A DNA stretch of 64,000 nucleotides, taken from contig JAYTOX010000058.1 in assembly GCA_043747595.1 (NCBI GenBank), positions 22,562-86,561 of the forward strand. Reading direction: 5' to 3'. This stretch comes from Bacteroidota bacterium. Lineage in GTDB: Bacteria > Bacteroidota > Bacteroidia > AKYH767-A > 2013-40CM-41-45. Below, piece by piece: positions 46 through 64,000 of this stretch. A model generated the notes under the pieces. The model was not told the origin of the DNA. It saw nothing but the letters and a program-made list of their open reading frames with translations, and did no database searches. Position 1 is the stretch's first letter; each line of letters opens with the position of its first letter. A program made the translations under genes and the position numbers.

Positions 46-936
46 TTAAAAGGAGAATACTCTCGATATATTAAAGCCTAATCGAATTCCCATATTGTTC
101 CATTTAGAATCGGTATGCGTAAAAAATTGATTCTCTACCAGTCCAAAGCTATTGGTAAAGTGAATTTGAAAAACGTGGCCTCCTGTTTCTAATTCATAAC
201 CAATAGACATGCTATCATAATATTTTACTGTCGGAGAATAATCATTGATTCGATACGCATACTCACCTGTTATGGCAGCACGTTTGGTAAATTTGTAACG
301 GAACAGCGCTGATACACCAAACGCATCGTTCTGATCGGTGATGTGCAACACCTGATTGTAATGAACAAACCAAGGTGCTATTTGCAAAGAAAAATTAGGA
401 CTAAATTTTCTGCCTAACATCGCCTCGAAACAATACGATAAACGACTCGATTGATTTTGGTAAATGTCATAACCATTGGCTATAGCATTACCATCTTTCA
501 AATTTGTATAATATGTTCCGGCAAATAACGTAAGACCAAACGGCATTCTATTATCGGTTGTTTGTCGTAGTAAACGATACTTCAAAAATCCATCAACCAT
601 TTTTTCTTGACTGCTTCTTCCAATCCCAAACATAAAGCGACCATCGGGACTGTATTCCAAACTCAGTCGAATATTTGCCGGGCCGTCTAATCCCCATGCA
701 TTGTAAGAGCCGGAATTTATTGGACCAAAACGGTGAGAGATTCTAAAATCAAGTGTTCGCTTACCAACCGTTTCAAGAGTATGTTGATCAACTAATCGTG
801 TTGTTTTAAAAGTTGCTATTACATAATCTTTCGCATGATCGTTAGTGGAATCTAATCCACTCAACATATCCTGACCATTCATAGAAAAGCCGATGAAAAA
901 AAGTACAGCCGATAAAATAATTTTTTTGTTGATCAT
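46..936 (-). CDS. DUF5777-like outer-membrane beta-barrel protein (paralog of 54076..54978)
   Basis: Has an N-terminal signal peptide (MINKKIILSAVLFFIGFSMNGQ), alternating beta-strand pattern and a C-terminal aromatic residue. Shares clear blocks with the 54076..54978 product: RISHxFG, KFRLLxQTxxNxxPFxL, ETGGHVF. Confidence 0.6.
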   Translation of the reverse strand: MINKKIILSAVLFFIGFSMNGQDMLSGLDSTNDHAKDYVIATFKTTRLVDQHTLETVGKRTLDFRISHRFGPINSGSYNAWGLDGPANIRLSLEYSPDGRFMFGIGRSSQEKMVDGFLKYRLLRQTTDNRMPFGLTLFAGTYYTNLKDGNAIANGYDIYQNQSSRLSYCFEAMLGRKFSPNFSLQIAPWFVHYNQVLHITDQNDAFGVSALFRYKFTKRAAITGEYAYRINDYSPTVKYYDSMSIGYELETGGHVFQIHFTNSFGLVENQFFTHTDSKWNNMGIRLGFNISRVFSF

Positions 937-939
937 AAA

Positions 940-1329
940 TTAGTTGTTGAGTTTACCACGATTCAGCCAAGCTTCAATTTTTTGTATGCTACAATCATTG
1001 ATTTTACCGCTACCTAACGGCATCCATTTAGCAGAATTAATTGAAGTGCTATGCGTAATGGTTTCCAAAAATCTACCGCTGTTGTTTATTGTACTTATAA
1101 CATCTGCATACGTCCCTAATCCATAAAGGCTGGTAGAACCATCGGTGTTGTGACAATTAGAATCTCCACTTCCACAGCTATGAAGCATGATAGGAGAAAT
1201 ATCGTTTGCAAACGAAACCGTACCCGTTGTATCGCATGGTGCAGCAGCCGGATGAAGTTCATCTACATTATCGTAGTAACAGCTTGTAAATGCTGCCATG
1301 ACTAAACAAATTGCGAATATTTTTTTCAT
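940..1329 (-). CDS. small Cys-rich lipoprotein, PSCyt1-like (Planctomycete-type cytochrome c domain-like) with C-x6-C-H motif
   Basis: Has a lipoprotein signal (..AAFTSC). Shares blocks VSFANDIxPI..C....CH, MP and WIxxG with 1333..1716 and 55540..55902. Lies 3 nt from each flanking gene. Confidence 0.5.
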   Translation of the reverse strand: MKKIFAICLVMAAFTSCYYDNVDELHPAAAPCDTTGTVSFANDISPIMLHSCGSGDSNCHNTDGSTSLYGLGTYADVISTINNSGRFLETITHSTSINSAKWMPLGSGKINDCSIQKIEAWLNRGKLNN

Positions 1330-1332
1330 GAT

Positions 1333-1716
1333 TTAATTGTTCTTTGCTCCTTGTTCAATCCAAAGGTAAATTAATTTCACTTGATCGTCTGCTAAAACAG
1401 GCAAGGGTTTCGGTGGCATTACCTTAGCAAAAAGTCTATTGCTGATAGTTTGATAGATTTTACTACCGTGTGCATTCCCCGGAGAAATACCTCCTTTAAT
1501 TATATCATCGTAGGTAATTAATGCGAATACGGAACGATCTTGTCCTGCAACATTCCCGGTATGACATCCACTTTGCGTGCAATTTCCACCAAAGATTCCT
1601 TGAACATCATTGGCAAAAGATACATCTTTCAACGTCGACAGATCAGTATCGTGCCTGCATGCACTGAGCAAAAAAGCAATTCCGATAATCGAACTATAAA
1701 TGAGATTTTTTAGCAT
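1333..1716 (-). CDS. small Cys-rich lipoprotein, PSCyt1-like with C-x4-C-H motif (paralog of 940..1329)
   Basis: Has a lipoprotein signal (LLSAC). Carries the motif GNCTQSGCH and a C-terminal block KVMPP...LIYLWIEQGAKNN, which is nearly identical to the 940..1329 C-terminus. Confidence 0.5.
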   Translation of the reverse strand: MLKNLIYSSIIGIAFLLSACRHDTDLSTLKDVSFANDVQGIFGGNCTQSGCHTGNVAGQDRSVFALITYDDIIKGGISPGNAHGSKIYQTISNRLFAKVMPPKPLPVLADDQVKLIYLWIEQGAKNN

Positions 1717-8736: not shown

Positions 8737-10194
8737 TTACATTTTTTGATCTAACCAATTTTTATAATTAATAATATCGGCATCGGCTGCATCTTTTTTT
8801 ATCGGAGAAAGTATATGATGCTTAACTTCACTGAAGAAAATCTTTTCTTTCCACTGGCGATCCGATTTAATTAAGCGTTGAATTACTTCAACCATTAGGA
8901 CATCTCGCTCATTAGATGTTTTTTTGAAAAAATCCACAAAATCTTTTTTTATTAACCGAATTTTATTTTCAAGAACATCAAAATCTTGCAGTTCATATCG
9001 AATCATCAGTTCAACAATTGCGATTTTAAATTTCAAATTTATATCGGTAGAACCGTAGCCTTTTAATGTAAAGAGTAAATTTAAATTCCTAATTGACTGG
9101 TGATAATTTTTAATTTCAAAATAAGAGACAGCCAAATTCAGATAAATAAATACTTCATAAAATGGAACAGAAATAATTTTTTCCAGCGAACGCATCTCCT
9201 CTAGAATTTCTATTGTTCTATCTCGATCCGATTTACTATAATTAATTACCAGCGAATTATAATAGAAGAACAAATATTTATCATACAACAATCGACTATG
9301 TTCTTCCATTGCTATTTTCAACTTCCCTGCATATTCTAATGATGCTTTTATTTTATTGTTTTTAAACAAAGTGTTTATAATATAAACCAACATCTGTAAT
9401 TTTACATCATGATTATTTTTGTTGAATAATTTATCGGATGTAAAGTCTTCGAATGTTTTCAATAAATATTCTTCAAGAGCAAGGTAGTCGCGCTTTTGAA
9501 GGAGAATTTGACTTACAGAATGATAAATTTTAAAGCGCAACTGCGGACTTTTAAGCAACTCCTTATCTTCCGTGTATTGACTAATTGTTTGTTCGAGAAG
9601 ATGAACAATTGGATTTTCTTCGGACGAAAAATTTTGTGATACTTTCATCTTATAGCTTACTACAGCTAGAATATCGTCGATCGCTCTTATTTTCCTAATT
9701 TGCTCATGATTTTTATGGCGCAGCTGAATATATTTTTCAGGATCGATCGATAATATTTCGTGCGACAACCGAATATAATCGCCGTAAATAATATCGAGCA
9801 TCTCAGCATTTTCCATTTTCGTTGCTTTCGCTTCTGCTTTCTTTAAAAAGTACAACGCTGTTTTCGTATTATTTTTTTCCAAAAAAAACTTAGCGAGCGA
9901 TAAAAGATGCAATAAATTGAGATTGTGATCATCGTCAACATGCTGCAACATCATACTTTTATTAAGGTCTGATAACAGCCGATTTCTTAATCGGTAAAAT
10001 GCGTTCTTATCTTTTTTCTTATAAAGTGAAAGCAAAATTTTATCTTCATCATATTCATCGCCCGATTTACGCATGTAATCAAAGAGTCGTTCATCGAGAC
10101 GATCGTCGTGGTAATGACTTCTGGCAATATATAGTTTGAAGAACCGAACTTGTTCTCTCGACATCCCCTTAACGATAGAATTCAATATATCCAT
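8737..10194 (-). CDS. hypothetical cytoplasmic helical protein (485 aa)
   Basis: This is a long ORF with no signal peptide. It is Lys/Leu-rich and predicted helical, and I recognise no catalytic motif. Confidence 0.45.
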   Translation of the reverse strand: MDILNSIVKGMSREQVRFFKLYIARSHYHDDRLDERLFDYMRKSGDEYDEDKILLSLYKKKDKNAFYRLRNRLLSDLNKSMMLQHVDDDHNLNLLHLLSLAKFFLEKNNTKTALYFLKKAEAKATKMENAEMLDIIYGDYIRLSHEILSIDPEKYIQLRHKNHEQIRKIRAIDDILAVVSYKMKVSQNFSSEENPIVHLLEQTISQYTEDKELLKSPQLRFKIYHSVSQILLQKRDYLALEEYLLKTFEDFTSDKLFNKNNHDVKLQMLVYIINTLFKNNKIKASLEYAGKLKIAMEEHSRLLYDKYLFFYYNSLVINYSKSDRDRTIEILEEMRSLEKIISVPFYEVFIYLNLAVSYFEIKNYHQSIRNLNLLFTLKGYGSTDINLKFKIAIVELMIRYELQDFDVLENKIRLIKKDFVDFFKKTSNERDVLMVEVIQRLIKSDRQWKEKIFFSEVKHHILSPIKKDAADADIINYKNWLDQKM

Positions 10195-51749: not shown

Positions 51750-52128
51750 AGCGTTGTAGAATTAATTTTAATTTTTCTTCTGTTTCATTATAGGTAATAA
51801 TATTTTTACCGGAAAAATAACAGAGGAGAGCAACTTGAATTTTCTTGTCAGAGATTAACGTATAAATATCTGCTTTATTTTTTCTGTACGACTCACGCAT
51901 TAATCGTTTCATCCGATTTCTATCAACAGCTTTTTTAAAAAAACGTTTAGGTACACTGAAAGCAATTTGAGCAGGAAAATCTGTTTCCAACGGAGTAGCG
52001 ATCCAAGTAAGTTTAAAAGGGGGCATTGAAATTATTTTTCCTTTTGAAACCAGTAATTCGATTGCTTTACGGCTACTTAGTCGCTCTGCTTTCTTAAAAG
52101 TATAACGACGAGGTGTAGCGGCGTTCAT
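51718..52128 (-). CDS. rnpA: ribonuclease P protein component
   Basis: Carries [21 protein letters not shown] and a basic RNR-like region ([17 protein letters not shown]). It lies upstream of yidD as in the canonical operon. Confidence 0.75.
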
Positions 52129-52134
52129 TGGAAA

Positions 52135-52884
52135 TTACTTATTAGCTTTCTTGATATATTGTTCAAGCGCCATAGTCATAGAAGGGGCCGCAGGAACAGG
52201 AGCTTGAATATCTAAACGGAGGCCGGCATCGGCCACAGCCTGAGCGGTAGTAGGACCAAAAGCGGCGATGCGCGTATTGTTTTGTTTGAATTTCGGAAAA
52301 TTTTTGAAGAGAGAGGTGATTCCTGAAGGGCTAAAAAATACGAGCACATCATAGTTTACCTCCGCCAGATCGGAGAGGTCGGAGGCTACCGTTTTATAAA
52401 TAACAGCTTTTGTATAATCGATTGAAAAAGAATCGAGTGTTTCAAAAATTTCTTGTTTGTGAATATCAGTACAAGGAACAAGAAATTTTTCTTTTTTATG
52501 CTTTTTGATTAGGTCCATCAGATCGTTGATGGTTTGTTTTCCAAAAAAGATCTTACGTTTTCTATAGACTACGAATTTTTGAAGGTAATAAGCAGTTGAC
52601 TCAGAGATGCAGAAATACTTCATGGTTTCAGGAACAGTGACACGCATTTCAATGCACATGCGGAAAAAATTGTCGGCAGCATTTCGGCTGGTCAAAATTA
52701 CTGCAGTATGCTCAGCAATATTCACTTTATCTTGCCTAAAATCTTTGGCAGCAATCGGCTCTACATGAATAAACGGTCTGAAATCAATTTTAAGGTTGAA
52801 TTTCTTCGACAAATCGAAATAGGGCGACTTTTCTGTTTCGGGCTTTGGCTGTGTAACCAGGATACTTTTAACTTTCAAACTCAT
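52135..52884 (-). CDS. hemD: uroporphyrinogen-III synthase
   Basis: Has the HemD-like fold pattern (ILVTQPKPE..., two-lobed with about 250 aa). The assignment rests on overall similarity only. Confidence 0.6.
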   Translation of the reverse strand: MSLKVKSILVTQPKPETEKSPYFDLSKKFNLKIDFRPFIHVEPIAAKDFRQDKVNIAEHTAVILTSRNAADNFFRMCIEMRVTVPETMKYFCISESTAYYLQKFVVYRKRKIFFGKQTINDLMDLIKKHKKEKFLVPCTDIHKQEIFETLDSFSIDYTKAVIYKTVASDLSDLAEVNYDVLVFFSPSGITSLFKNFPKFKQNNTRIAAFGPTTAQAVADAGLRLDIQAPVPAAPSMTMALEQYIKKANK

Positions 52885-52930
52885 ACTAAGGATTTCCGTT
52901 TTCGCTATAAGTCTCGGGGTGCACAGGTGA

Positions 52931-53827
52931 TTAAGACCACATAATTCGTATCAAAATCATCAAGGGCGCAATTTCAAGAGTGCAAAGATATAAAAATAAG
53001 TAAAGCAGCGAGAAAGTTGACGTACTGAGTCCAATAAGAATACCCCTAAAAATTCGATAACCGAAGGCAAGGCCAACAATAGAAAGCCCTAAAACAATAA
53101 ACCAATGGGAAGAGAACACCTGATTATAGGCCATTAAAAAAATAAACGGAAGCAGAACAATTCCAAGTATGTTATTGATAAGAAACGTATTGAAAATATA
53201 AGTGGCCATTTCTCTTTCTAAATTAAAGAGCCGGCCGGCAATTTTCAAGATCAGAAATTTCAGTGCATAAACGAGTGAAATCAGGACTGCAAAAAGGAGA
53301 AAACGATTGAATCCGGAGCCTACTCCTCCCAGTCTCCAGCCATAATTCAAGCTTATTAGATAAAGAAAGAGCGCTGCTATGAGATTAAAAACGAGACTTA
53401 AATACGTTGACGTTCGCTGAACGAGTATATTTTCATCCCTAACAATCTGATTGGTGAGATTATTATTGACAAAAGCCAATACCATTTGCGAAAAATATTT
53501 GGTGTAAAAAATTCGTAAAGCGGCATAAACACCTAAAACTAAAAGGAGAATTGGAAAAAACCAATCGGGCGATGAGGCTGTTTTTGAAATTGGTGTTTCG
53601 TTGGCAGGATGAAGAAAATGGCCATGATAGAGGTTGGAATACACAGGTCTATTGGCAGAATCGGCTGCATAAAATGCGAGCGTATCGAACTTCCATGCAG
53701 CTCGCATTGAACTATCGATGTTAGATTTTTGAACAAGCCCTTCTGGTTTACTGAAAATATACATCGACGAATCATTCGAATGAAACGCAGAAGAATCAGA
53801 AAAAAAAACAGTAGAATCGGGCGACAT
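52931..53827 (-). CDS. DUF4271 domain-containing membrane protein
   Basis: Has multiple TM helices after a soluble N-terminus. It carries DUF4271-like blocks and lies in the typical position next to hemD in Bacteroidota. Confidence 0.55.
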   Translation of the reverse strand: MSPDSTVFFSDSSAFHSNDSSMYIFSKPEGLVQKSNIDSSMRAAWKFDTLAFYAADSANRPVYSNLYHGHFLHPANETPISKTASSPDWFFPILLLVLGVYAALRIFYTKYFSQMVLAFVNNNLTNQIVRDENILVQRTSTYLSLVFNLIAALFLYLISLNYGWRLGGVGSGFNRFLLFAVLISLVYALKFLILKIAGRLFNLEREMATYIFNTFLINNILGIVLLPFIFLMAYNQVFSSHWFIVLGLSIVGLAFGYRIFRGILIGLSTSTFSLLYLFLYLCTLEIAPLMILIRIMWS

Positions 53828-54075
53828 TTAGAGTAGGAAACCTATAAGTAGAGAGTTTTTTGATGGCAACTATCTGCAAAGATAAATTCAATTTACAATT
53901 TAATACGCTTTGAAATTTAAAATGTTGCTAAAGGCAGAATTGAAGTAGGCCAGGAATTTAAAATTGGGTTCGAAAGAAAAAGTGGGAAAAGCAGCCTCTC
54001 AGTTTACGAAGCGGTATTGCTATTTCTCAAAAGATTCGTATTTATACGTTATCGATAAAGAAAAACCAAGAGCAA

Positions 54076-54978
54076 TTATTTCTTTGTCGTAGTTTTTGGA
54101 TCGCCTACCAACTTGAACATTCTGGAAATATTAAAGCTAAATTTAAATCCTCCCTTTTGCCACGAGTCCATAGTATTAACCAGGTAATCGTTTTCCAAAA
54201 TACCCGAGGCATTACTGAACATGATTGTAAATACGTGGCCGCCGGTTTCTATTTCTATTCCGGCTCCAATTACATCTGTATGCTGAAGGACCAATCGATT
54301 TCGATTCAATGTATTGGAATAATCAAAAATAATTGAAGCGCTTGGAGTAAATTTAAATCTGAACCCTCCAGATAAACTGAACGTATTGTTATCATCATCG
54401 GCAGGAACAAAATTTCGGTGAACATATGTTGGTATTACGACAACACTAAAACGAGAGGAAAATTTTCTGGCTAGTATCAGTTGCGAAACATAAACTAAAC
54501 GATAAGCGTCGCTCGTATAATCCATTCTATCTTGGGTAGAATAAGTTAAATTAGCAAAACCGGAAAGCGAAAAAGGAATTGAATTATTTTCAGTTTGATC
54601 GAGTAATCGAAATTTAACAAGTCCTTCTAAATCTTCATTCCTTTTGCAACGGCTCACACCAATCATAATATGGTCCGTTAGTCCGTAATGAAACCCAATT
54701 CGAATATCGCTCGACTGGTCAAAACCATATAAGTTATGAAATCCGCCGCCGCTTTGTGTGCCAACATTTCCGAAGAGATGGCTTATACGCACATCTAAGT
54801 TTTTTTTCTTGACAGTTTCGTTTGTGTGGATATTAATTAATTTATTTCCTTTAAACATACCGATTACCGGTAAATTAGATTTCGGTTTTTCATTTTGCAA
54901 TAATTTAAGGAGATCGTCTTGAGCAAAAAGAAAGGTAGGCAAGAAAAAGAAAAGTAAGTAGAGTAAATATTTATTCAT
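54076..54978 (-). CDS. DUF5777-like outer-membrane beta-barrel protein (paralog of 46..936)
   Basis: Has a signal peptide (LLYLLFFFLPTFLFAQ). Shares the blocks DVRISHLFG, VKFRLLDQTENNSIPFSL and IEIETGGHVFTIMFSN with 46..936. It is the last gene of the operon. Confidence 0.6.
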   Translation of the reverse strand: MNKYLLYLLFFFLPTFLFAQDDLLKLLQNEKPKSNLPVIGMFKGNKLINIHTNETVKKKNLDVRISHLFGNVGTQSGGGFHNLYGFDQSSDIRIGFHYGLTDHIMIGVSRCKRNEDLEGLVKFRLLDQTENNSIPFSLSGFANLTYSTQDRMDYTSDAYRLVYVSQLILARKFSSRFSVVVIPTYVHRNFVPADDDNNTFSLSGGFRFKFTPSASIIFDYSNTLNRNRLVLQHTDVIGAGIEIETGGHVFTIMFSNASGILENDYLVNTMDSWQKGGFKFSFNISRMFKLVGDPKTTTKK

Positions 54979-55538
54979 TTATTAATAACGTTTTTACCGG
55001 TTGCACGATAATCTAAAGTAACATTCACATCTATAATTTCTGCAATATTATGAAATAATAATTTCGGAACAGTAATATTAAAATCTTTTAATGCAACTTT
55101 GAAATTGGAGTTGATAGAGAAAGTGTTTCCATCTTTCTTATAAACCCCGTTTAGCTCAAGTTCTTTTTCAACTCCATGGATAGAAATAATTCCTTTAGCA
55201 GTAACATTATGTTCTCCATCAGAAAATGTTGCAATGGAATCTTGAATTATTCCTTTGAAGGAGGCCATAGGAAACTTATCGCTTTCCATATATTTTTCAT
55301 TGAAATGTTCTTCCATCAATTCTTTAGCGAAATGAAAATTTCGGATAGGAATAACTACGGCAATTTCATTGGTTGAACTATTAATAAAACTTGCAGCCTG
55401 TTTATTTTCTGCTTTAATATCTTCAATGGGAGCATGAGAATAAAAAGTAACAATCCCGCTCACCGCATTATATATGTTTTGCGAAAACGATGGAGTGCAG
55501 TAAATAATTAAAAAAAGAATCAGTGTTATTTTTTTCAT
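54975..55538 (-). CDS. YceI-like (lipocalin-like, polyisoprenoid-binding) periplasmic protein
   Basis: Has a signal peptide and YceI-like blocks (VSGIVTFYSHAP...; ...ITVPKLL...IEIIDVNVTLDYRA). It overlaps the DUF5777 gene by 4 nt. Confidence 0.65.
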   Translation of the reverse strand: MKKITLILFLIIYCTPSFSQNIYNAVSGIVTFYSHAPIEDIKAENKQAASFINSSTNEIAVVIPIRNFHFAKELMEEHFNEKYMESDKFPMASFKGIIQDSIATFSDGEHNVTAKGIISIHGVEKELELNGVYKKDGNTFSINSNFKVALKDFNITVPKLLFHNIAEIIDVNVTLDYRATGKNVINK

Positions 55539-55539
55539 T

Positions 55540-55902
55540 TTATTTTTCGGGGTAACCTTGTTGAATCCACGATTTCAATTGAAAGTAATCGCATTCACTA
55601 ATATGATACTTTTCGGGCATGTGCTGAGGGTCGTTCAAAGGGAGGTCTATTCTGTATTCTATGGTTCCCGAACGAATTCGATTGACAACTGTTTTATAGT
55701 TGGTATAATCATAAGCGCCTTTTCCTCCGGGTGCATGACATTCAGTAAAATTGCAATTCGCATTCAAGATCGGTAAAATATTGGTGTTAAATGTAAATCG
55801 AACGCTATCACAATTATTCGGACGGAAAATAGTTTCAACCATCTTTTCCTTTGTACAAGAAATTATGGTTAAGCAAAAAAGACCGATCCAAATAGATTTC
55901 AT
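55540..55902 (-). CDS. small Cys-rich lipoprotein, PSCyt1-like with C-x4-C-H motif (third paralog)
   Basis: Has a lipoprotein signal (LFCLTIISC) and carries ILPILNANCNFTECHAPGG...MPEKY...LKSWIQQGYPEK. The internal Met is chosen as the start. Confidence 0.5.
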   Translation of the reverse strand: MKSIWIGLFCLTIISCTKEKMVETIFRPNNCDSVRFTFNTNILPILNANCNFTECHAPGGKGAYDYTNYKTVVNRIRSGTIEYRIDLPLNDPQHMPEKYHISECDYFQLKSWIQQGYPEK

Positions 55903-55971
55903 ACTTGAATCAAATATAGGAAAAGGAATCTGTCTTAGCAATTCAATTTACATGAACTGCTTCAATAAAAT

Positions 55972-56646
55972 TTAAAAAATAGCTTGTGTTCTTTCCACAA
56001 CCCAGTAAAGAGCGATTAACGAAATACAGAGAGAAACAGGAATAGTCACAAATTTTCGATACCAATTTTGGTCAGAAAAACGAGTTTGGAAAACGATAAT
56101 GGCAAGAAAAATAACGGCCGTTTGTCCTGCTTCTACGCCAATATTAAACGATATCAGAGCCGACATAAAATCCTTTTCAGGCAAACCGATATCTGCTAAG
56201 ACGCCGGCAAATCCTAGTCCGTGGATAAGTCCGAATAAAAAAACGACGATAAGCCTCCACCACTTCAGTTCTGTTATTAAAATATTTTCTACTCCAATAA
56301 AAACTATTGATAGCGCAATTAAAGGCTCAACTATTGCTCCTTGCGGATGAATCATATTGTTCATCGCCAGTGCCAATGTTATGGAATGAGCAATTGTAAA
56401 ACACGTTACTTGAGCCAAAACAATTTTTAATTTCGGATTAAATAAAAATATGCCTAATACAAATAAAATATGATCGAAACCAAGAGGAAGAATGTGTTGA
56501 AATCCAAGTTTCAGATATTCCCAAAACAAATTGACCTTCGACATACCCTCAAGATCGTAAGCCATAGTGTGAGCTGAGCTTGAAAATGAAATCAAGGTAA
56601 ACAAGCAAAAGCTGATCAAGAATTTATTTTCGGTATTCAACTTCAT
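55972..56646 (-). CDS. HupE/UreJ family metal (Ni/Co-type) transporter
   Basis: Has 6 TM helices. His-rich motifs (HILPLGFDHILFVLG, HGLGFAGVL) are in TM segments, as in HupE/UreJ. The start overlaps the TPR gene stop (ATGA). Confidence 0.65.
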   Translation of the reverse strand: MKLNTENKFLISFCLFTLISFSSSAHTMAYDLEGMSKVNLFWEYLKLGFQHILPLGFDHILFVLGIFLFNPKLKIVLAQVTCFTIAHSITLALAMNNMIHPQGAIVEPLIALSIVFIGVENILITELKWWRLIVVFLFGLIHGLGFAGVLADIGLPEKDFMSALISFNIGVEAGQTAVIFLAIIVFQTRFSDQNWYRKFVTIPVSLCISLIALYWVVERTQAIF

Positions 56647-57974
56647 CAGTTAGCGGCTAAATAATTTTTATTTTCCCATTTCAACAAAACAGGTAAAAAC
56701 GGATTTGTACTTAAAGCCGATTGAATCAGCTTTACACCTTCAACACGGTTTCCTGATTTACTGAGTATAAGTCCGGCTTGATAATGAAGAACTGGATTCT
56801 GTGAATTCGTTCTTAAAGCTCTCACGACATATTTATTTGCTTTTTCAAAATCGCCTCGTTTGTAATATACCCAAGCTAAAGTTTGCTCAACATCAATATT
56901 ATCGGGACGGCGATTATATTCTATCAAAGCATGTTTTAATGCTTTGTTATAATCATAGGCGTTAATGTACGCGATAGCAAGTTCTTTATCGGCATAATGA
57001 CCATGATTTTTAACGCTCTCATCACCACTCACGCCAGCAAGCAATTCAATGGTTTTCTGCGCAGCTATGTATGCTAATTTAGGTTGGTTACTTATTCGAT
57101 ATACTTCCGACAACTCTTCTTCAAAAGAGAAATCGTCGATTATAGCAATGGCTTTTTTCAAATAATTAATTGAAGCAATGTAGTTACGCTTTGCTTTTTC
57201 AATGCGAGCCAAACCTGCATAAGCAAAAGAAAAAATAGGGCGATAATAGATTGCTGTTTCATATTGAAGTTGCGCTGAATCGAGCTGACCAGTTTGCTCA
57301 TACAAATGTCCGAGTTGAATTCGCGTCCATTCTGTAGCTTCCATTCCGGGATAGCCGGACTGAAGCGATAATTTCATTGCACTGATTGCTCCTGGATAAT
57401 CGCCATGAATTTCTCTTAAGTAGGAAATTCTACTATACGATCGATTATCAGGACGAAGTAATGCCATTTTATCGGCCATCACAATTGCATTTTGGTAGTC
57501 GCCATTTTCTACAAATGCATCGGTGAGAATTCCATAAACAGCAGTGCTATAAGGATTGATTCGTTGTGCATCTACAGCTATTGGAATTGCATCAGAAAAA
57601 TGATGTTGCGATAAAAGCACAGTTGCCTTTCCTATTAAGGATTCAAAATTTGTTGAATCTTTTTTAAGTACACTGCTAAAAAGTTCCAATGCCTTCGGAT
57701 CATAATAAGCATGCTCTCCTGATTCTCTCGACTCTTGAATATATGCAAACCCTAACTTCACTTTTGCTTCTTGGTTTTCAGGATTGATGCGAAGCGTTTC
57801 GATAAGCGATTGAATCGCTGCTTTACTATTAATCCATTCATTAGAAGATGCTGATTGACCTTGACGAATTTTAATTCCAAGTTTCAACTGATCAGGAGTT
57901 CTAAATTCTATGATTGCAAAAGAAAAGATGCTCACAAAAGAAAGAAGAAAAATGTATGCGATATTTTTTTTCAT
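56646..57974 (-). CDS. tetratricopeptide repeat protein (periplasmic/membrane-anchored)
   Basis: Has multiple TPR-like helical repeats and an N-terminal TM/signal (MKKNIAYIFLLSFVSIFSFAII). Confidence 0.65.
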   Translation of the reverse strand: MKKNIAYIFLLSFVSIFSFAIIEFRTPDQLKLGIKIRQGQSASSNEWINSKAAIQSLIETLRINPENQEAKVKLGFAYIQESRESGEHAYYDPKALELFSSVLKKDSTNFESLIGKATVLLSQHHFSDAIPIAVDAQRINPYSTAVYGILTDAFVENGDYQNAIVMADKMALLRPDNRSYSRISYLREIHGDYPGAISAMKLSLQSGYPGMEATEWTRIQLGHLYEQTGQLDSAQLQYETAIYYRPIFSFAYAGLARIEKAKRNYIASINYLKKAIAIIDDFSFEEELSEVYRISNQPKLAYIAAQKTIELLAGVSGDESVKNHGHYADKELAIAYINAYDYNKALKHALIEYNRRPDNIDVEQTLAWVYYKRGDFEKANKYVVRALRTNSQNPVLHYQAGLILSKSGNRVEGVKLIQSALSTNPFLPVLLKWENKNYLAAN

Positions 57975-58052
57975 GGTTCGAGTAATTGAAAAGATATATT
58001 TAAAAATAAGGACCGAAGCGATACACACTTCGGTCCTTGCTAAAAACAACCA

Positions 58053-60128
58053 CTATTTAGCAATAGTAATTTTGATAGATTGAACTGTTGATCCATTGTT
58101 TTGAAGCACTGCAAAATAATTGCCCGACGTTTGACTTAACCACTTCACTTCGTAGCTATCGGCATCACGCATTTCATTGTTAACAGGAACAGCAACTATA
58201 CGACCCATAGAATCATAAATCTTCAAAGTTACTTTCGTTTTTGAAGTAACACGGAATTTAATATTTACCGATTCAGTAGATGGATTTGGATACGATTCCA
58301 TTAAAAGTTGAGGCGAACCTACATTCAATCCGCCTGTTGGATTAACAGCAGTGAGTACATAGCCTCCTGTACATAATCCATAACCACTCCATGGCAATTG
58401 AACATAAGGAAATGATGTGCGGAAAGTAGTATCGTTTTGCTCAACACCTGTAGTATAACCCAAAACACCTAGCAATTGAGGAGTAAGCGGACTATTTCCA
58501 ATTGTATAATCGTCGTAGAACAATCCAACTGCTGCAAGAGCGGCACCCGATACAGCTTGAAGTTCAATACGAGTTACATCATCTTCCAAACGACGACCAT
58601 TCGGGAATCCATCCATATTCGGAATATTTTGAATTGCAGTAGAAGTATTGAAACGACTATCTGTTAATCCAAGAACTGCTGCCTGAATAATACCAAGTGA
58701 GCTAAAGTCGGCCGAGTTACGAGCTGTAACCGGAACCGCCATATTAAGACGTAACATATCTCCAAAAGTTGGAAGGAAGTTATTGATGAAAGGTTTTCCG
58801 GCTGATAATGGATTACCTGGAGTTTTCCCTGTGAATAATTGATACGGTGCAAGATTCGGAACGCCTGTGTAGAAGATTGGAAGTAAATCGGCTGAACGTG
58901 GTTTACCCGCGCGCAATAAATATTTTCCGAAGATGGCAGTATCAAGTGCAGTACCTTGCGTAGCAGCATTGCCATACAATACATACAATCCATCGTGTGT
59001 ATTTCCAAAATCTACATTTCCTAAAACAGTTGGAGATGCGCGTTGAATTCTTAGGCTCGACAATGCCGGAACTGCTCCGCCAAACAAACTGTCGTCCATA
59101 TAAAGTCCAAGCTCCGGATTACAGAAATAATCATCGAAGTATGTAGAGTCTTGATAAGGAGTAAGGCTATTCCAAAAATCTTTCATACCAATTGGAATAA
59201 CAGCTTCATTAGTTAAAGGCATTCCTAAGCGAGAAACTTGAACGAAATTTCCTGTGTGTGATTCCGTTCCATTACCATTAAGTGTGCGAATGGCTGGACG
59301 ACTAGCAGAAGCCCATACACCGATAACGAAATCGCCATCGAGAATACTTGAAGCTTGCGCAACTGTCTTACCATCTTTTTGTAAGTCAGAGATATTTATT
59401 TTTAGAGCAATAACATGAACGTTTTTACATTTCAATCCATCTTTTGGAGCATCTACACCGGTACCACCAGCACGAGTTTGACCGAGGTCAAAAATTCCAC
59501 CTAAGTCAACAAAAAACGGATCGTCGGCAGGACCACAATAAACAGATTCTCCACTAGTAGCAGTTGTAATTGCATTGGTAAAGAGTGTTTCGTAGTCAGG
59601 TGAATTTAATCCTACACCTGAAGAAATAGACCGCGGGCCAATATTTGGTGGCGGCACAATTCCATTGGTTACGATTGTTGAAAAAGCTCCACCATTTACA
59701 CTTTTCTCTGCTGTGTAAGTTGTTTTCAAATTCTCTGCACCTAATCTGATATTAAAAAACGTTGATGGATCTTGATTTACTTTAGCGAAAGTGAAACGAT
59801 AAGTAATGTCGTCGCCTGCTGTTGCACCATTATTTTTTACGTGAATTTCATAACGAACATTTTCTCCGAATGAAAAATAATTTGGTCCGCCTTGCGGTAA
59901 TTCTGCAGGAACATAGGCTGCAATAATTGTTACTTTGTTCGAATCTTGCGGATCGCGGAAGGCATACAGATCTGTATTATCTGCAACCGGATCGTTACTA
60001 ATAAGCGGAGCTTCACGATGGCTCGACGCTGTCAACTGATTCTGTTGACTTGCAAAGAAAAGTCCTCCACCAATAAGGAGAAGGGCTATTGAAGCAATAG
60101 AAAGTCGTTTTTTTGTAGACGTTTTCAT
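58053..60128 (-). CDS. DUF4331 domain protein with T9SS C-terminal sorting domain
   Basis: Has a signal peptide followed by SSHREAPLISNDPVADNTDLYAF, the hallmark DUF4331 N-terminus. The C-terminus ESYPNPSTESVNIKF...GNYFAVLQNNGSTVQSIKITIAK is a T9SS CTD. Confidence 0.7.
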   Translation of the reverse strand: MKTSTKKRLSIASIALLLIGGGLFFASQQNQLTASSHREAPLISNDPVADNTDLYAFRDPQDSNKVTIIAAYVPAELPQGGPNYFSFGENVRYEIHVKNNGATAGDDITYRFTFAKVNQDPSTFFNIRLGAENLKTTYTAEKSVNGGAFSTIVTNGIVPPPNIGPRSISSGVGLNSPDYETLFTNAITTATSGESVYCGPADDPFFVDLGGIFDLGQTRAGGTGVDAPKDGLKCKNVHVIALKINISDLQKDGKTVAQASSILDGDFVIGVWASASRPAIRTLNGNGTESHTGNFVQVSRLGMPLTNEAVIPIGMKDFWNSLTPYQDSTYFDDYFCNPELGLYMDDSLFGGAVPALSSLRIQRASPTVLGNVDFGNTHDGLYVLYGNAATQGTALDTAIFGKYLLRAGKPRSADLLPIFYTGVPNLAPYQLFTGKTPGNPLSAGKPFINNFLPTFGDMLRLNMAVPVTARNSADFSSLGIIQAAVLGLTDSRFNTSTAIQNIPNMDGFPNGRRLEDDVTRIELQAVSGAALAAVGLFYDDYTIGNSPLTPQLLGVLGYTTGVEQNDTTFRTSFPYVQLPWSGYGLCTGGYVLTAVNPTGGLNVGSPQLLMESYPNPSTESVNIKFRVTSKTKVTLKIYDSMGRIVAVPVNNEMRDADSYEVKWLSQTSGNYFAVLQNNGSTVQSIKITIAK

Positions 60129-60522
60129 ATTCTAATGAATTTGGTTAATAATAAATATTGATAGATTTAATTAAACTTTAGAACACTTACGTGAGTAGAG
60201 AACAGGTTGGATTGCCGGAAATGCTAATTTAATTGAAAATAAAAATGATGTCATTAACTGAGAGGAAAAAAATATGAAATTGCCGTAGTTTAGTGGAAAA
60301 TGAATACTTTTTGGCACCCTTTATTGAAAAGAGCAAAAAGAAAAGTCTAAAACAACTTCAGCAATTCACTCATGATTAGGAAAAAAAGCTAGGAGAGAAC
60401 TATATCGAATAAATTTGATTTCATTTGAAATAAAATCAACTTAAAAAAAGGAGTAATAACCTGATAAAGTTTATTTCGAAAATTTTCTGATGACATAATT
60501 TCTACTCGGATTAAAAAGAATT

Positions 60523-61758
60523 TTATTCCTCAATAACCAATCGTTTAGAAATCGTTAGATTTTTAACTAAAATTTTTACAATATAGATCCCTGAAGGAAT
60601 CCACTCTAAATCAACCTTATCATTGTAACTTTCTTTTTCCATCACAAGTTTTCCATAGATATTGTAAATAGAAATATGTTTTAAAGAAAGATACTGATCA
60701 GCATCTGAAAATAAAAGTTGAAAACTATTTCCGGCAGGATTAGGGAATAAATCAATTGAGTTAGATCCGGTTTTATTCTCCTCTATCGAAGTCGCTATGT
60801 CAACTGTATGTCGAACAATTACTTCATTATCTAAAATAACATTTGTGCTCCAAATAAATTGTGCGTCGTTTGAAGCATCATCAAAAATATTTGTAAAATT
60901 AGTATACGCCGGCTTATTATTTACTCCAATTGTAGCATTTGAATAAAGAGTAGCGGCCGGCCACAAACTGTCATTGAAAGTAGGTTCAGACCAATTTGCC
61001 GGACGACTCCAATGCAAACCATAGAAGGATGTTCCGTTATTGACATCTGCTGTTGAACAATTATTCGACAAACGCAACGAACCATTTTCTGTCGGACAAG
61101 TGAGATCGGTAATTGGTGCTGTATAAAAAGTTTGCGCTTTCCAGTCGCTGCCGGTCTTTGCAATAATAGTGTTGTTGGCATCTTTAAAAACTGCAACCAT
61201 TCCACCATCGCCATCATGATATTGAAATCCGTTGCTCACTTCGGAACCTAATCCTAAATGTTCTTCCCAATCAACCAATAGCATGGCAATGGTAAAAGGT
61301 CTGCTCACTCGAAATCTTACAATATTTGAATTGAACTGCGTATACGGAACATTGTCTTTCCCAACAGGAATTCCATTAATATACATTTCAAAATAATTAT
61401 CTGCAAAAATAAAAGCAGTGATCAATTCACCATTCGGATCAATGGTAATAATGTCAGAACCATTGAGGGCAGCAAGTGCTGCTGAGCTATTTGTGAAATT
61501 TGCACCATTGCAAACGTTGTTTAAATCTGAAGCAAATGGAAATGTACTATTCAAATAATTTATAACTGCCGGAACTACCCAAACTGAATTATCGCTAGCT
61601 ACAATGGTTCCTACTCCGGCTATTCGTCCACTTGTACAAGTGTATAAATTACTTGTTGTAGTTGTTGCTAAGCCTTGAGTAACCGAAGCTGTTCCTAAAT
61701 ATTGAGAATATGAATTGAATGAAATAAATAAAAGTAAACTAAAGGCAAGTTGTTTCAT
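60523..61758 (-). CDS. secreted protein with T9SS C-terminal sorting domain
   Basis: Has a signal peptide. The C-terminus LFPNPAGNSFQLLF..SGIYIVKILVKNLTISKRLVIEE is a T9SS tail. Confidence 0.55.
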   Translation of the reverse strand: MKQLAFSLLLFISFNSYSQYLGTASVTQGLATTTTSNLYTCTSGRIAGVGTIVASDNSVWVVPAVINYLNSTFPFASDLNNVCNGANFTNSSAALAALNGSDIITIDPNGELITAFIFADNYFEMYINGIPVGKDNVPYTQFNSNIVRFRVSRPFTIAMLLVDWEEHLGLGSEVSNGFQYHDGDGGMVAVFKDANNTIIAKTGSDWKAQTFYTAPITDLTCPTENGSLRLSNNCSTADVNNGTSFYGLHWSRPANWSEPTFNDSLWPAATLYSNATIGVNNKPAYTNFTNIFDDASNDAQFIWSTNVILDNEVIVRHTVDIATSIEENKTGSNSIDLFPNPAGNSFQLLFSDADQYLSLKHISIYNIYGKLVMEKESYNDKVDLEWIPSGIYIVKILVKNLTISKRLVIEE

Positions 61759-61804
61759 TTAATTTTAAGGTTTAGTAACGATTAATTTAAAGGTTGAAGA
61801 GTTC

Positions 61805-63466
61805 TTATTGATGAATTAATTTAAACGTTTTAATTTCATTAATACATTTTAAACTTAATAAATAAATTCCTTGACTTACATTCCCTTCAATACTGAAAGA
61901 ATAATTTTGCCCTTCATTTAATTTTACATTTTTATTTTCTTGAATAATCTGCCCTGTACAATCGTATAATGTTATCGTAACATTATTTAATTCCAACGAA
62001 GAAATAATTTCTACTTTCATATTAAAAGGATTAACCACTTGAATCATTGAAGTCGCACTAAAAGCCGGTTCATCAACTGAAGTGATCATATTACAATTAT
62101 ATGCAATTGGATTTAATTCAATAGGGCTGCCGGGAGTAAGCGTTTGTCCGTTGAAACCCGAATAGTTAATAGGATAATAAGAGCATCTGAAAACTGCATT
62201 CATTACAGGAGTTGTTCCTTGACTCACTATTCCGTTTTGCCCTATCGGATTTACATATCGCCAAACTGTAGTTTTAGTTGAATCGATTTCAAAAAAATTT
62301 CCTTTCGAGCCTTCACAAATAATTGTATTTCCATTTGGCAATCGTTGTGCGCCTGAGATATTCATCGAATAAAAGTCGGTTGGTGTTGATGCAGCATATT
62401 TCCAAAAAGCAGAATCGGGAAGAAAAGGAAGATTAGTTGCAATTGAATAATTCCCTAACGAATCGATTGGAGGAAAAAACTGATCGATGGTTGAATAACT
62501 ACCGCCAGGTCTTCCGGGTCCATTATTAAAAAGCAAAATACTTCCGGCATTTGGCATCCCGTTTTCAATCCAGCGAGCATTATGTTGACCGAATAATTTT
62601 TTATCGCTCGCAGTACCTCGATTATAAGCCGCAGCGTTTCCCCATCGATACATCAAATCTCCACCTCTTGAATGAACACCTCCGCTATGTGAAGATGACT
62701 CAATAGTTGAAGTGCTGTGATCGATAATCCACACTTCACTTAAGTTATGTGCACTTAAAATTATTTGATCGAGAGTCGGGTTATAGTCGAGTGCATTGCA
62801 ATGAAGCCAATCGGCAGCAGTACTTGCAGTAAAATTTAGATTGATTAATTCAGGATGCTGGGAAACATTTCCATAGTTCGCTTTTGTAGAATCGAAATCT
62901 TGAATCAAATGATCCCAAGCATGCCACTCCCAAACAATATTTGCAGCATTGATTCCGACAGGCTGCAACTCTACAATTTTTTCAGACCAGAGTGTTGTAC
63001 CAAGCAACGACGGATTTCTTCCGGCGGCAATTGCTTCATTTGAAGTTTTTAATTCCCATACAATTGCCAGAACGTTTCCATTTGGCAATACTCGAATGTC
63101 GTGGTGTTGACATTGCGTTGTAGAAGACAATGTGTACGACCAAATCAAGTTACTATTCCAATCAAATAATTCAACTATTCCTCCATTTCCACCGGCAGTG
63201 AAAACATTGTTGTTAGTACTTCCCGGACGTAAGAGATTTCCATCTTGCAAAAGATAAACAGACTGACCGGGGTGATGAGTTCCTGCCCAAGAATGAACTA
63301 AGTATCCGCACTTGTCAATCAGATAAGAATTGTTTGAACTAATAGGAGAGAACAAAACATACCCATTTGCAGAGCCAACATTTTGCGTAAATAATCCAAC
63401 CGTTTGCTGGGCTAATAAATTATACGAGCAGACAATTGCAAAGATAAAGAGTACAATTTTTTTCAT
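61805..63466 (-). CDS. arylsulfotransferase (ASST)-like beta-propeller protein with T9SS C-terminal domain
   Basis: The N-terminal block GLFTQNVGSANGYVLFSPISSNNSYLIDKCGYLVHSW resembles the ASST family start. The C-terminus has a T9SS CTD. The start is set at the internal Met MKKIVLF. Confidence 0.45.
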   Translation of the reverse strand: MKKIVLFIFAIVCSYNLLAQQTVGLFTQNVGSANGYVLFSPISSNNSYLIDKCGYLVHSWAGTHHPGQSVYLLQDGNLLRPGSTNNNVFTAGGNGGIVELFDWNSNLIWSYTLSSTTQCQHHDIRVLPNGNVLAIVWELKTSNEAIAAGRNPSLLGTTLWSEKIVELQPVGINAANIVWEWHAWDHLIQDFDSTKANYGNVSQHPELINLNFTASTAADWLHCNALDYNPTLDQIILSAHNLSEVWIIDHSTSTIESSSHSGGVHSRGGDLMYRWGNAAAYNRGTASDKKLFGQHNARWIENGMPNAGSILLFNNGPGRPGGSYSTIDQFFPPIDSLGNYSIATNLPFLPDSAFWKYAASTPTDFYSMNISGAQRLPNGNTIICEGSKGNFFEIDSTKTTVWRYVNPIGQNGIVSQGTTPVMNAVFRCSYYPINYSGFNGQTLTPGSPIELNPIAYNCNMITSVDEPAFSATSMIQVVNPFNMKVEIISSLELNNVTITLYDCTGQIIQENKNVKLNEGQNYSFSIEGNVSQGIYLLSLKCINEIKTFKLIHQ

Positions 63467-63470
63467 TTTA

Positions 63471-64000
63471 TTATTTACGTAAGTGGATTTGGCATCCGAT
63501 TGATTTTGTTTCTTTAATTTGTATTTCATTTCCTTTTAATAAAGCGTCAACTGCACTTTCAATATACTTTGTCGTTACTTTAGTAGGCTCAGCTCCGTTA
63601 TCATCTATAGCTCCATTGTATTTCACAATATAAGCACCCTTTTCTTTCCAGATTACGAAAGCGTGTGGAGTTTTTTGAGCTTGAAAGTTTTTGGCAACAG
63701 TTTGAAATCCGTCGTACAGATAAGGGTAATTAAATTTTTCGGCTTTTGCCTTAGCAATCATTTTCAGATATGAATCCTCTTCATAAGTAAGCGTATCGGT
63801 CGAACTAATAGCGATAACCGGTACATCAAGCGATTTGTATTTTAGGTTCAATTTGTTAATTCGTTGAGGATATAACTTAGCAAATGGGCAATGGTTGCAG
63901 GTAAAAATAATTACAAAGCCTTTCGCTTTAGGATAATCTTTTAAAGAAACATTTTTTCCATTAATATTTTTTAAAGAAAAATCGTTTACGCTTTTGCCAT
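63471..64000 (-). CDS. TlpA/ResA-like thiol:disulfide oxidoreductase (thioredoxin fold), N-terminus beyond window end
   Basis: The in-frame upstream extension gives GFVIIFTCNHCPFAK, a CxxC motif. AhpC/TSA-redoxin-like blocks follow. The frame is open at the window edge. Confidence 0.65.
   Translation of the reverse strand, partial: GKSVNDFSLKNINGKNVSLKDYPKAKGFVIIFTCNHCPFAKLYPQRINKLNLKYKSLDVPVIAISSTDTLTYEEDSYLKMIAKAKAEKFNYPYLYDGFQTVAKNFQAQKTPHAFVIWKEKGAYIVKYNGAIDDNGAEPTKVTTKYIESAVDALLKGNEIQIKETKSIGCQIHLRK

Follow-up and report, generated by a model that had tools for sequence, protein, structure and literature searches.

Organization of the locus

The six genes considered here lie on the minus strand of the window, as the whole 64,000-nt stretch of DNA that was analyzed is called below, which comes from contig JAYTOX010000058.1 of a Bacteroidota bacterium. 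In the order of transcription, they encode a DUF4331 protein, a tetratricopeptide repeat (TPR) protein, a HupE/UreJ-2 family metal permease, a small Cys lipoprotein, a YceI-family lipocalin, and a DUF5777 outer-membrane β-barrel protein. An earlier inspection of the letters of this DNA (the original prediction) regarded them as one dedicated uptake or trafficking system with one element in each layer of the envelope. That claim was not borne out: the region is two adjacent separable units, module A (DUF4331-TPR-HupE) and module B (lipoprotein-YceI-DUF5777). Module A may be a pathway for the capture and import of copper or nickel, and module B may be a redox unit of the outer envelope.

All six open reading frames (ORFs) were found where the original prediction had placed them (Table 1), the view that they encode envelope proteins was supported, and Pfam matches, judged against curated cut-offs, confirmed five of the six family calls. 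The DUF4331 protein matches PF14224 over the entire profile (positions 1-421 of 421, 427.8 bits) and carries at its extreme C-terminus a sorting domain of the type IX secretion system (T9SS; Por_Secre_tail, PF18962, 37.4 bits; TIGR04183, 37.8 bits). Together with the hydrophobic region at its N-terminus, this domain gives it the features of a type-A T9SS cargo. The TPR protein matches many TPR Pfam families, the permease matches HupE_UreJ_2 (PF13795) with 150.9 bits versus a cut-off of 24.5 bits, the lipocalin matches YceI (PF04264) with 46.5 bits versus 23.7 bits, and the barrel protein matches DUF5777 (PF19089) with 262.7 bits. The sixth call, a PSCyt1-like lipoprotein, stands by remote homology only, because this protein has no Pfam match of its own and the link is made by a profile match to another protein, P0179. 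The original prediction had stated that none of these genes has an experimentally defined function in Bacteroidota, and a literature search found no paper naming DUF4331 or DUF5777.

The genes are packed as tightly as had been claimed, with a 78-nt gap between DUF4331 and TPR, a 69-nt gap between HupE and the lipoprotein gene, and a 1-nt gap between the lipoprotein and YceI genes. Of the two ATGA overlaps that had been reported, the one between YceI and DUF5777 was found, whereas the TPR/HupE junction is TGATG, with a 1-nt overlap. The longest TPR ORF spans 56646-58049; its likely true start is the later ATG at 57974, because the longer ORF would cross a hairpin that follows DUF4331. Similarly, the longest lipoprotein ORF spans 55540-55941, and its likely true start is the ATG at 55902.

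Table 1. Positions of genes and signals in the window.
Feature	Position (nt)	Strand	Remarks
ECF-sigma-type promoter	60185..60212	-	ATCCA-N17-CGTAAGT (predicted); about 57 nt upstream of the DUF4331 start codon
DUF4331 protein with T9SS type-A C-terminal sorting domain	58053..60128	-	691 aa; first gene of module A
Codons Ser35-Ser36-His37	60018..60026	-	Predicted mature N-terminus of DUF4331 (...LTA↓SSH)
T9SS C-terminal sorting domain of the DUF4331 protein	58068..58292	-	aa 613 to ~687/689 of 691
Terminator-like or attenuator hairpin	58008..58038	-	13-bp stem, 7 GC pairs, then ATTTTTAAAT; between DUF4331 and TPR
TPR protein	56646..57974	-	442 aa from ATG 57974; N-terminal membrane anchor or signal sequence
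HupE/UreJ-2 family inner-membrane metal permease (PF13795)	55972..56646	-	224 aa
Housekeeping -7 promoter box	55911..55918	-	TATATTTG (TAnnTTTG); ends 8 nt upstream of the lipoprotein start codon
Small lipoprotein	55540..55902	-	120 aa from ATG 55902; lipobox IISC, start MKSIW
YceI-family lipocalin	54975..55538	-	187 aa; signal peptide
DUF5777 outer-membrane β-barrel protein	54076..54978	-	300 aa
TAnnTTTG box of DUF4271/hemD	53884-53877	-	
Second module-B-like unit	46..1716	-	Paralogous, without YceI; custom hidden Markov model matches, ORFs
Second unit, lipoprotein 1	1333-1716	-	127 aa; NCTQSGCH (CX4CH) ... VMPP
Second unit, lipoprotein 2	940-1329	-	SCGSGDSNCH (CX6CH) ... WMP
Second unit, DUF5777 barrel	46-936	-	288 bits

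Two separable modules

The partners of DUF4331 were surveyed in 79 loci anchored on this gene, one genome per species, in which six-frame ORFs were searched with iterated profiles. Nearly all of these loci are labelled Bacteroidota, with one Ignavibacteria and one Synechococcus. Thirty-three of them are well flanked, with at least 4 kb on either side of the DUF4331 anchor, and here TPR is a partner in 28, HupE/UreJ-2 in 22, a TonB-dependent receptor, an extracytoplasmic function (ECF) sigma factor and an RskA-type anti-sigma factor in 12 each, an S26 signal peptidase in 6, and a His-rich small membrane protein in 4; two or more DUF4331 genes are present in 22 of the 33. Module A is conserved across Bacteroidota. 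The components of module B are rare in this set (Cys lipoprotein, 4/33; YceI, 3/33; DUF5777, 3/33). TPR, the most constant partner, was also recovered in 57 of the 79 loci by an unbiased all-against-all clustering of ORFs, which returned an identical partner set and, as the sole extra recurrent family, a histidine kinase (11 loci) that was rejected as a member of the system, being generic and variable in position.

Absence of co-conservation in other genomes had been listed among the results that would refute a single system, and for the six-gene set this is what was observed. The six genes occur together only in the closest relatives (L003, L004, L005, L007, L009, L095, and L097), the closest record being L004, a contig of a Bacteroidota metagenome-assembled genome (MAG) whose DUF4331 protein is 99% identical to that of the window. 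The contigs of the distant DUF4331 representatives P0246, P0257, P0260, and P0217 were too short to reveal partners. The locus labelled Synechococcus (L023, the 3-kb contig CALRTD020000536 of the MAG Synechococcus sp. UW140) carries a Bacteroidota-type DUF4331-T9SS gene of 69% identity followed by TPR, and this contig is probably misbinned.

In the converse survey, which was anchored on DUF5777 in metagenomes and supplemented with look-ups of lipoprotein homologues, at least 11 loci (L083-L085, L098-L101, L103, L104, L107, and L114) have the order ECF sigma-RskA-lipoprotein-YceI-DUF5777-DUF4271-hemD, without DUF4331, TPR, or HupE. In a smaller set of loci, DUF4331-TPR-HupE is inserted between RskA and the lipoprotein gene, as in the window, and the spacing at the junction between the two modules ranges between 69 nt and over 1 kb. 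YceI is paired with DUF5777 in every fetched locus, down to 35% identity; the distant DUF5777 genes at that identity keep the YceI neighbour without the lipoprotein, and one of them has a Rieske protein and another an ECF sigma factor. The division into two modules thus follows from the partner counts, from the stand-alone module B loci, and from the second unit within the window (Table 1), which in addition identifies the cytochrome-c-like lipoprotein and DUF5777 as a recurrent pair. The possibility that YceI and DUF5777 replace the TonB-dependent receptor was ruled out, as module B fills the same chromosomal site when module A is missing.

Regulatory signals

The first DUF4331 gene is preceded, at a distance of 50-120 nt, by the bipartite motif ATCC(A)-N16/17-CGTA(A/G/T)GT. 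Twenty-seven of 67 loci have its strict form, ATC[CT]-N15-19-CGTANGT, before the first DUF4331 gene, versus 0.18 expected from shuffled sequences, and the motif has a single occurrence in the 64-kb window when both strands are scanned. Of the 52 matches that 2.4 Mb of loci contain, 39 immediately precede genes of the system, namely DUF4331 (32), the receptor (3), TPR (2), and the His-rich protein (2). The shape of the motif is typical of ECF sigma promoters, and its recognition by a SigK/RskA-type sigma factor is predicted.

The sigma factor of these loci is SigK-like, its best NCBIfam matches being SigK/SigE-like and below threshold, and it has a single Cys, the redox Cys pair of SigK being absent. 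The anti-sigma factor matches NF052375 with 113.7 bits and RskA_C with 64 bits and has one transmembrane helix. The ECF-RskA genes immediately precede DUF4331 in L003, L005, L007, and L009; in L004 they are about 8 kb away on the upstream side, and the intervening genes include three T9SS cargo genes. By position, the site of the L004 pair corresponds to about 4 kb past the end of the window, which itself holds no such pair. The sigma factors of loci with module B only, and of the DUF4331 loci with a receptor, share about 70% identity with their counterparts in the six-gene loci.

In this lineage, several genes (window 60523-63529, minus strand; L004 2267-9594) come between ECF-RskA and DUF4331, which are directly adjacent in L005. 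The T9SS cargo among them comprises a protein of 411 aa and an arylsulfotransferase-like protein, to which L004 adds an esterase-like one; the others are thioredoxin-like, AhpD-like, methyltransferase, and thiamine-phosphate-synthase-like genes. Repeats were also seen near the system in single loci: an intergenic (CCTCCAT)n tandem repeat upstream of DUF4331 (L005, ~9780-9870), a (CAAACRC)n repeat upstream of the ECF gene (L084, ~6430-6485), and inverted copies of 'ctgcggtttttctgcg', resembling repetitive extragenic palindromic elements, before the lipoprotein gene (L093, ~3230-3330).

A hairpin of -18 kcal/mol or lower follows the DUF4331 stop codon in 48 of 54 loci, compared with 12 of 150 random windows, 3 of 41 positions after HupE, and 11 of 52 after TPR, which served as controls. 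The hairpin sequences are unrelated between loci, so it is the structure and its position that are conserved, and from this conservation DUF4331 is predicted to be the high-abundance product of module A. An Rfam scan of window positions 52000-62000 found no riboswitch, and its lone sub-threshold match was this same hairpin.

Module B appears to be provided for separately. The sequence TAnnTTTG is the housekeeping -7 element of Bacteroidota, and 11 of 13 loci, plus the window, have such a box (TTATATTTG) at positions -15 to -17 relative to the lipoprotein ATG, at a chance expectation of 1.2% per 20-nt span. It is kept whether the upstream gene is HupE or RskA, and it is predicted to be module B's own promoter. 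ECF-type sequences before module B were limited to near-matches and were inconsistent. The claim that DUF4271 and hemD lie directly downstream holds, as they are conserved neighbours of DUF5777 in this lineage, but they have a promoter box of their own. The boundaries predicted within the six genes at the hairpin and at the lipoprotein promoter box speak against a single transcription unit. The two-module architecture, with its ECF promoter and its attenuator, is held with high confidence.

The DUF4331 protein and the partners of module A

DUF4331 is a family of more than 8000 homologues (6843 representative clusters in an exhaustive search at E up to 0.001), with a mean column identity of 72-76% among its members from Bacteroidota. 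Its only family-wide conserved His, H37, is invariant in 63 of 63 diverse members aligned at 33-58% identity, and it stands directly after the signal peptide in the context A↓S-S-H-R-E-A-P. The motif is present in 111 of 150 representatives, and the remaining 39 are nearly all N-terminally truncated fragments. In the 102 representatives that have enough sequence upstream of the motif to be scored, His is always the third residue after A/G/S (SSH, 96; ASH, 4; SNH, 1; TSH, 1). Nine cluster representatives begin with M-[S/T]-S-H and have no signal peptide; two of these starts were checked on DNA, and they have a good Shine-Dalgarno sequence, with an upstream in-frame peptide that is not hydrophobic. 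Whether by Met excision or by cleavage of the signal peptide, the mature N-terminus would thus be X-X-His.

An X-X-His N-terminus is the amino-terminal Cu(II)/Ni(II) (ATCUN) pattern, which calls for a free N-terminus, His at position 3, and any residue but Pro at position 2. At the predicted cleavage site, the DUF4331 sequences fit this pattern throughout the family, which makes them candidate ATCUN proteins. Searches of the PDB by sequence and by family profile found no solved relative of DUF4331. Of the two structure predictions that had been called for, that of the lipoprotein gave a model, described below, whereas that of DUF4331 failed.

DUF4331 genes that start with M-S-S-H-R-E-A-P and lack a signal peptide were seen in L088 (7453-8898), L090 (7001-8440), and L091 (417-1856). 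The contigs look actinobacterial from their neighbouring genes (e.g., Tad-pilus and MMPL genes in L088), and each of these DUF4331 genes is preceded by a small ORF of 90-100 aa.

The permease provides a link to metals. It has a predicted signal peptide, a His as its predicted first mature residue (His26, SSA↓HTMAY), and transmembrane His/Asp/Glu residues, the features that mark its family, and H26, H51, D58-H59, H87, H142, and E172 are kept in at least 95% of 42 homologues. In a recent study, His1 was 100% conserved in PF13795 permeases, and the periplasmic anglerase domains fused to such permeases bound Cu2+ with a Kd of ~60-74 nM and Ni2+ with ~220 nM (Franco Cairo et al., 2025; PMC12537917). 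These domains had no meaningful enzyme activity, and the authors proposed that they capture metal and feed it to the permease (PMC12537917).

Two other partners occur in relatives. The His-rich small protein of the receptor-linked loci is a membrane protein of ~126 aa with a C-terminal PPPE/K and the sequence AHTFxxxHxATVHxENGxYHxH (L002, 14211-14591; L057, 14094-14477; 9 further loci). Its gene always lies between HupE and the TonB-dependent receptor and sometimes has its own ECF-type promoter. It has no Pfam or NCBIfam match, and a relationship to the Cys lipoprotein was ruled out, as the two sets of matches do not overlap. S26 signal peptidase genes adjoin DUF4331 in 16-18 loci; a role as a maturation protease of the SodX type was rejected because the score was 29.6 bits against a cut-off of 63 bits, and the protein is an ordinary signal peptidase I (TIGR02227, 142 bits). 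In the literature, nothing specific was found that joins HupE, TonB, and zinc, or ATCUN and TonB. 

The proteins of module B

The lipoprotein belongs to a small family: a sequence search found 19 clusters and a profile search 59, out of 5.8 billion. It contains NCNFTECH (CX4CH, nt 55735-55755), DPQHMP (with Met95, nt 55618-55620), and the pair C31/C104; in the family, the motifs are NCNFxECH and DPQHMP, and C16 (the lipidation site), C31, C50, C55, H56, H94, M95, and C104 are invariant. The family profile reaches P0179 at E 1.3e-8 with an hhalign probability of 95.6%. P0179 itself matches PSCyt1 with 45.1 bits and Cytochrome_CBB3 with 32.2 bits; its first domain is also CX4CH, and the second is a PSCyt1/Cytochrome_CBB3 domain with the canonical CXXCH. 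In addition, Met95 of DPQHMP aligns with the MP of a PSCyt1 protein, and the paralogue at 1333-1716 (127 aa) matches PSCyt1 with 19.3 bits, below the 22-bit cut-off. The AlphaFold2 (AF2) model of the lipoprotein, with a predicted local distance difference test (pLDDT) score of 73, has four helices ordered as in class-I cytochrome c. Sequence and profile searches of the PDB gave no match.

The best solved relative of the YceI protein is BcnB (5ixg, E 8e-4). YceI lipocalins bind isoprenoids or ubiquinone, and in Burkholderia they detoxify membrane lipid peroxyl radicals together with a cytochrome (PMC9113575). DUF5777 has no solved relative in a PDB search; its residues H67 and H248 do not vary, even in members of 35% identity.

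In L112, a 148-aa Rieske [2Fe-2S] protein (8828-9274) stands in the lipoprotein's place, directly after a distant YceI-DUF5777 pair. The recurrence of a small redox protein, c-type-like or Rieske, with DUF5777, and with or without YceI, suggests an outer-envelope redox unit.

Downstream of DUF5777, a DUF4271-hemD-rnpA-yidD-S41 peptidase order is syntenic (window 52135-53827, minus strand; loci L083-L104). The DUF4271-hemD part of this synteny is missing from the distant YceI-DUF5777 pairs, and a functional link to haem is therefore not established.

Comparison with known systems

Module A is closest in concept to the anglerase-HupE/UreJ-2 systems Ang-1 and Ang-2, with which it shares the permease family PF13795, a predicted first mature residue His, and, in the reading proposed here, the principle of an extracytoplasmic part with an N-terminal His that captures Cu2+/Ni2+ for the permease (PMC12537917). 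There are also differences. The window permease has about 20 residues between His26 and the first helix, compared with ~150-180 aa for an anglerase domain, and at 224 aa it thus has no fused Ang domain. The candidate capture protein, DUF4331, is separate, much larger, and exported by the T9SS, and it has His at position 3, not 1; it is not named in the anglerase paper (PMC12537917). Compared with the HupE/UreJ nickel/cobalt permeases that belong to hydrogenase and urease clusters, the window permease is likewise a small multi-helix secondary transporter with a signal peptide and first-helix His/Asp motifs, but it belongs to the divergent HupE_UreJ_2 family and has no hydrogenase, urease, or B12 genes and no riboswitch nearby.

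ECF-controlled uptake with an extracellular capture protein is familiar from the haemophore system HasA/HasR with HasI/HasS, and from FecIRA. Module A resembles these systems in its dedicated sigma/anti-sigma pair, in a receptor within the regulon (in relatives), and in a secreted protein, encoded first, that is predicted to be abundant and would bind the cargo. It differs in that the anti-sigma factor is RskA-type and not FecR-type, export would be by the T9SS, and the window cluster has no receptor; moreover, the receptor of relatives, which comprises CarboxypepD_reg, Plug, and barrel domains, had no detectable signalling extension. In nickel superoxide dismutase, SodN is cut by the S26-family protease SodX, which exposes an N-terminal Ni-binding hook. 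The S26 peptidase genes beside DUF4331 recall this arrangement, since they adjoin a protein that is predicted to need an exactly processed metal-binding N-terminus, although their product is an ordinary signal peptidase I and the window cluster has no such gene.

The sigma/anti-sigma pair resembles mycobacterial SigK-RskA (ECF19) in its sub-threshold SigK/SigE-like matches, its RskA_C domain, and its one helix, but it lacks the redox Cys pair, the regulon is unrelated, and the promoter motif was derived from the present loci alone (PMC7509140; PMC7826278). For module B, the nearest counterpart is the pair of BcnA (YceI) and LcoA (cytochrome b561), where YceI is also genetically coupled to a small redox protein (PMC9113575). 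The window cluster, however, has no cytochrome b561, its redox partner being a c-type-like lipoprotein (or Rieske in L112), the DUF5777 barrel is an obligatory third partner, and the phylum and the type of quinone are different.

Proposed mechanism and alternatives

The region as a whole is best explained by an ECF-regulated Cu/Ni capture-and-import pathway in module A and an outer-envelope redox/lipocalin unit in module B, a combined reading to which we give an even chance. Metal uptake, which the original prediction had considered for all six genes, is the best reading for DUF4331-TPR-HupE and not for the whole set. Module A would be transcribed from a promoter read by a dedicated SigK/RskA-type ECF sigma factor, and the hairpin after its first gene would leave DUF4331 abundant, with read-through or re-initiation giving the TPR protein and the permease. 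DUF4331 would be exported and its signal peptide cut, so that a Ser-Ser-His N-terminus becomes an ATCUN-type Cu(II)/Ni(II) site, and the T9SS would place the protein on the cell surface, where metal is captured. The outer membrane might be crossed by means of the co-regulated TonB-dependent receptor and the His-rich small protein that many relatives have. The HupE/UreJ-2 permease, with a conserved His as its predicted mature N-terminus, would then bring the metal across the inner membrane, and the TPR protein presumably serves as an adaptor or chaperone in the periplasm. For capture and import of Cu/Ni by module A, where metal binding, the identity of the metal, and the direction of transport are all deduced from sequence, the chance is placed at even or slightly below. 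Module B is most likely an outer-envelope redox unit by analogy with the BcnA-LcoA system, in which a lipocalin-bound isoprenoid quinone and a small redox protein would act at the outer membrane; its redox role as such, given that the chemistry is deduced, is tentative and, if anything, doubtful.

Several points weigh against this explanation. The window cluster has no TonB-dependent receptor, unbiased clustering of the loci revealed no recurrent Ni- or Cu-dependent enzyme nearby, and no Fur/Zur/NikR-type signal or metal riboswitch was found at the locus. RskA-type anti-sigma factors have been connected with redox stress and not with heavy metals alone (PMC7826278). The failed AF2 model of DUF4331 (pLDDT 50.5) means that its N-terminus cannot be placed in a site, and a protein of ~550 aa with strong conservation and many invariant Asp/Asn/Arg residues looks more like an enzyme or a protein with multiple partners than like a simple carrier. 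An ATCUN site makes no demand for the two Ser residues that precede the His, yet they are 90-95% conserved, and the DUF4331 members without a signal peptide, apparently cytoplasmic, do not fit a purely extracellular capture role. In module B, the spacing in the lipoprotein is CX4CH (CX6CH in one paralogue) and not CXXCH, PSCyt1 (PF07635) was matched by 0 of 20 family members at E up to 10, and a Foldseek search of the lipoprotein model against the PDB gave nothing below E = 3, the two cytochrome c domains at E = 6-8 being not significant. The cytochrome-c assignment rests on one remote profile link plus motifs; because the fold and Pfam searches were not significant, "cytochrome-c-like" denotes a supported resemblance and not a proven membership.

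Other explanations have to be weighed against the same observations. A single six-gene trans-envelope operon for uptake or trafficking of one cargo, with one component per layer, would agree with the common strand, the tight spacing and the two start/stop overlaps, with the co-occurrence of all six genes in the seven relatives listed above, and with an ECF-RskA pair upstream of both arrangements. It is nonetheless unlikely, as the six-gene set occurs in only 3 of the 33 well-flanked DUF4331 loci (with the lipoprotein, YceI, and DUF5777 individually in only 3-4 of them), at least 11 loci have module B by itself, a conserved hairpin follows DUF4331 and a conserved housekeeping box precedes the lipoprotein gene, and module B has no consistent ECF-type promoter and a junction distance ranging from 69 nt to more than 1 kb. 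A similarly low probability is given to the view that the whole neighbourhood is a SigK/RskA-type envelope oxidative- or redox-stress regulon, in which module B detoxifies lipid radicals and module A protects or remodels the surface, with metal transport playing a secondary part. A tie to redox sensing does exist for RskA-type anti-sigma factors and ECF18/19 (PMC7826278), the YceI-cytochrome pair of Burkholderia detoxifies lipid peroxyl radicals (PMC9113575), ECF-RskA stays beside module B when module A is missing, and in L004 the stretch from ECF-RskA to DUF4331 includes thioredoxin-like and AhpD-like genes. However, the sigma factor, with its single Cys, has no SigK redox Cys pair, the ECF-type promoter precedes the DUF4331, receptor, TPR, and His-rich protein genes and not consistently module B, and the presence of the receptor, HupE, and the His-rich protein among the partners is characteristic of metal import.

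The remaining alternatives concern single modules. DUF4331 may work as an enzyme at the surface or in the periplasm instead of carrying metal, possibly as a copper-dependent oxidase or as an N-terminal-nucleophile-type hydrolase acting through its processed N-terminus, with TPR and HupE/UreJ-2 serving its maturation or cofactor supply. Its very high conservation, with many invariant polar residues across phyla, the conservation of Ser35 and Ser36 alongside His37, the existence of cytoplasmic-type members, and the dedicated S26 peptidase that adjoins it in some loci and recalls maturation proteases would all suit an enzyme. This explanation is still unlikely, since a strict N-terminal nucleophile would not tolerate Ala at position 1 in 4 of 102 and Thr in 1 of 102 representatives while His is invariant, a HupE importer directed to the cytoplasm and a TonB-dependent receptor are hard to square with cofactor supply outside, and no similarity to any solved enzyme was found, family profile included. 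That module B handles haem, porphyrin, or metal, its CXnCH...M lipoproteins binding a metal such as Cu(I) or a tetrapyrrole and DUF5777 acting as a channel, is somewhat less probable still. The variable Cys spacing (CX4CH, CX6CH) is unusual for haem attachment, the lipoprotein has extra invariant Cys, His, and Met residues and the barrel two invariant His residues, DUF4271-hemD is a conserved neighbour, and the Pfam cytochrome models are without a match. On the other hand, the profile link leads to P0179, which has a canonical CXXCH cytochrome c as its second domain, the lipoprotein is replaced in L112 by a Rieske redox protein, known YceI partners are redox or quinone carriers (PMC9113575), and the hemD synteny is missing from distant YceI-DUF5777 pairs.

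Returning to metal capture by module A, the two modules could also cooperate in this lineage. DUF4331 would then be a new secreted X-X-His metal-capture family, displayed on the surface by the T9SS, and module B would reduce Cu(II) to Cu(I), freeing it for HupE/UreJ-2. An ATCUN site would grip Cu(II) tightly and Cu(I) weakly, and the lipoprotein, the quinone-loaded YceI, and the DUF5777 barrel would carry electrons to the outer membrane, which would amount to a reductive protein-metallophore uptake pathway. This model is speculative, and we consider it unlikely.

Significance

Module A is best classed as a variant of the known ECF-regulated metal-uptake and HupE/UreJ-2 capture systems, with an uncharacterised X-X-His protein, predicted to be exported by the T9SS, as its signature, and module B as an undescribed variant of the pairing of YceI with a redox partner. 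Cytochrome-c-like CXnCH lipoproteins recur together with DUF5777 barrels and YceI, which suggests a redox unit of the outer envelope that has not been described. The DUF4331 family is very large and extremely conserved, and the cluster provides a concrete and testable hypothesis for its function. If this hypothesis is correct, it would add a protein-based route of Cu/Ni capture to the small-molecule and fused-domain ("anglerase") routes, and it would link the T9SS to trace-metal nutrition in environmentally abundant Bacteroidota.

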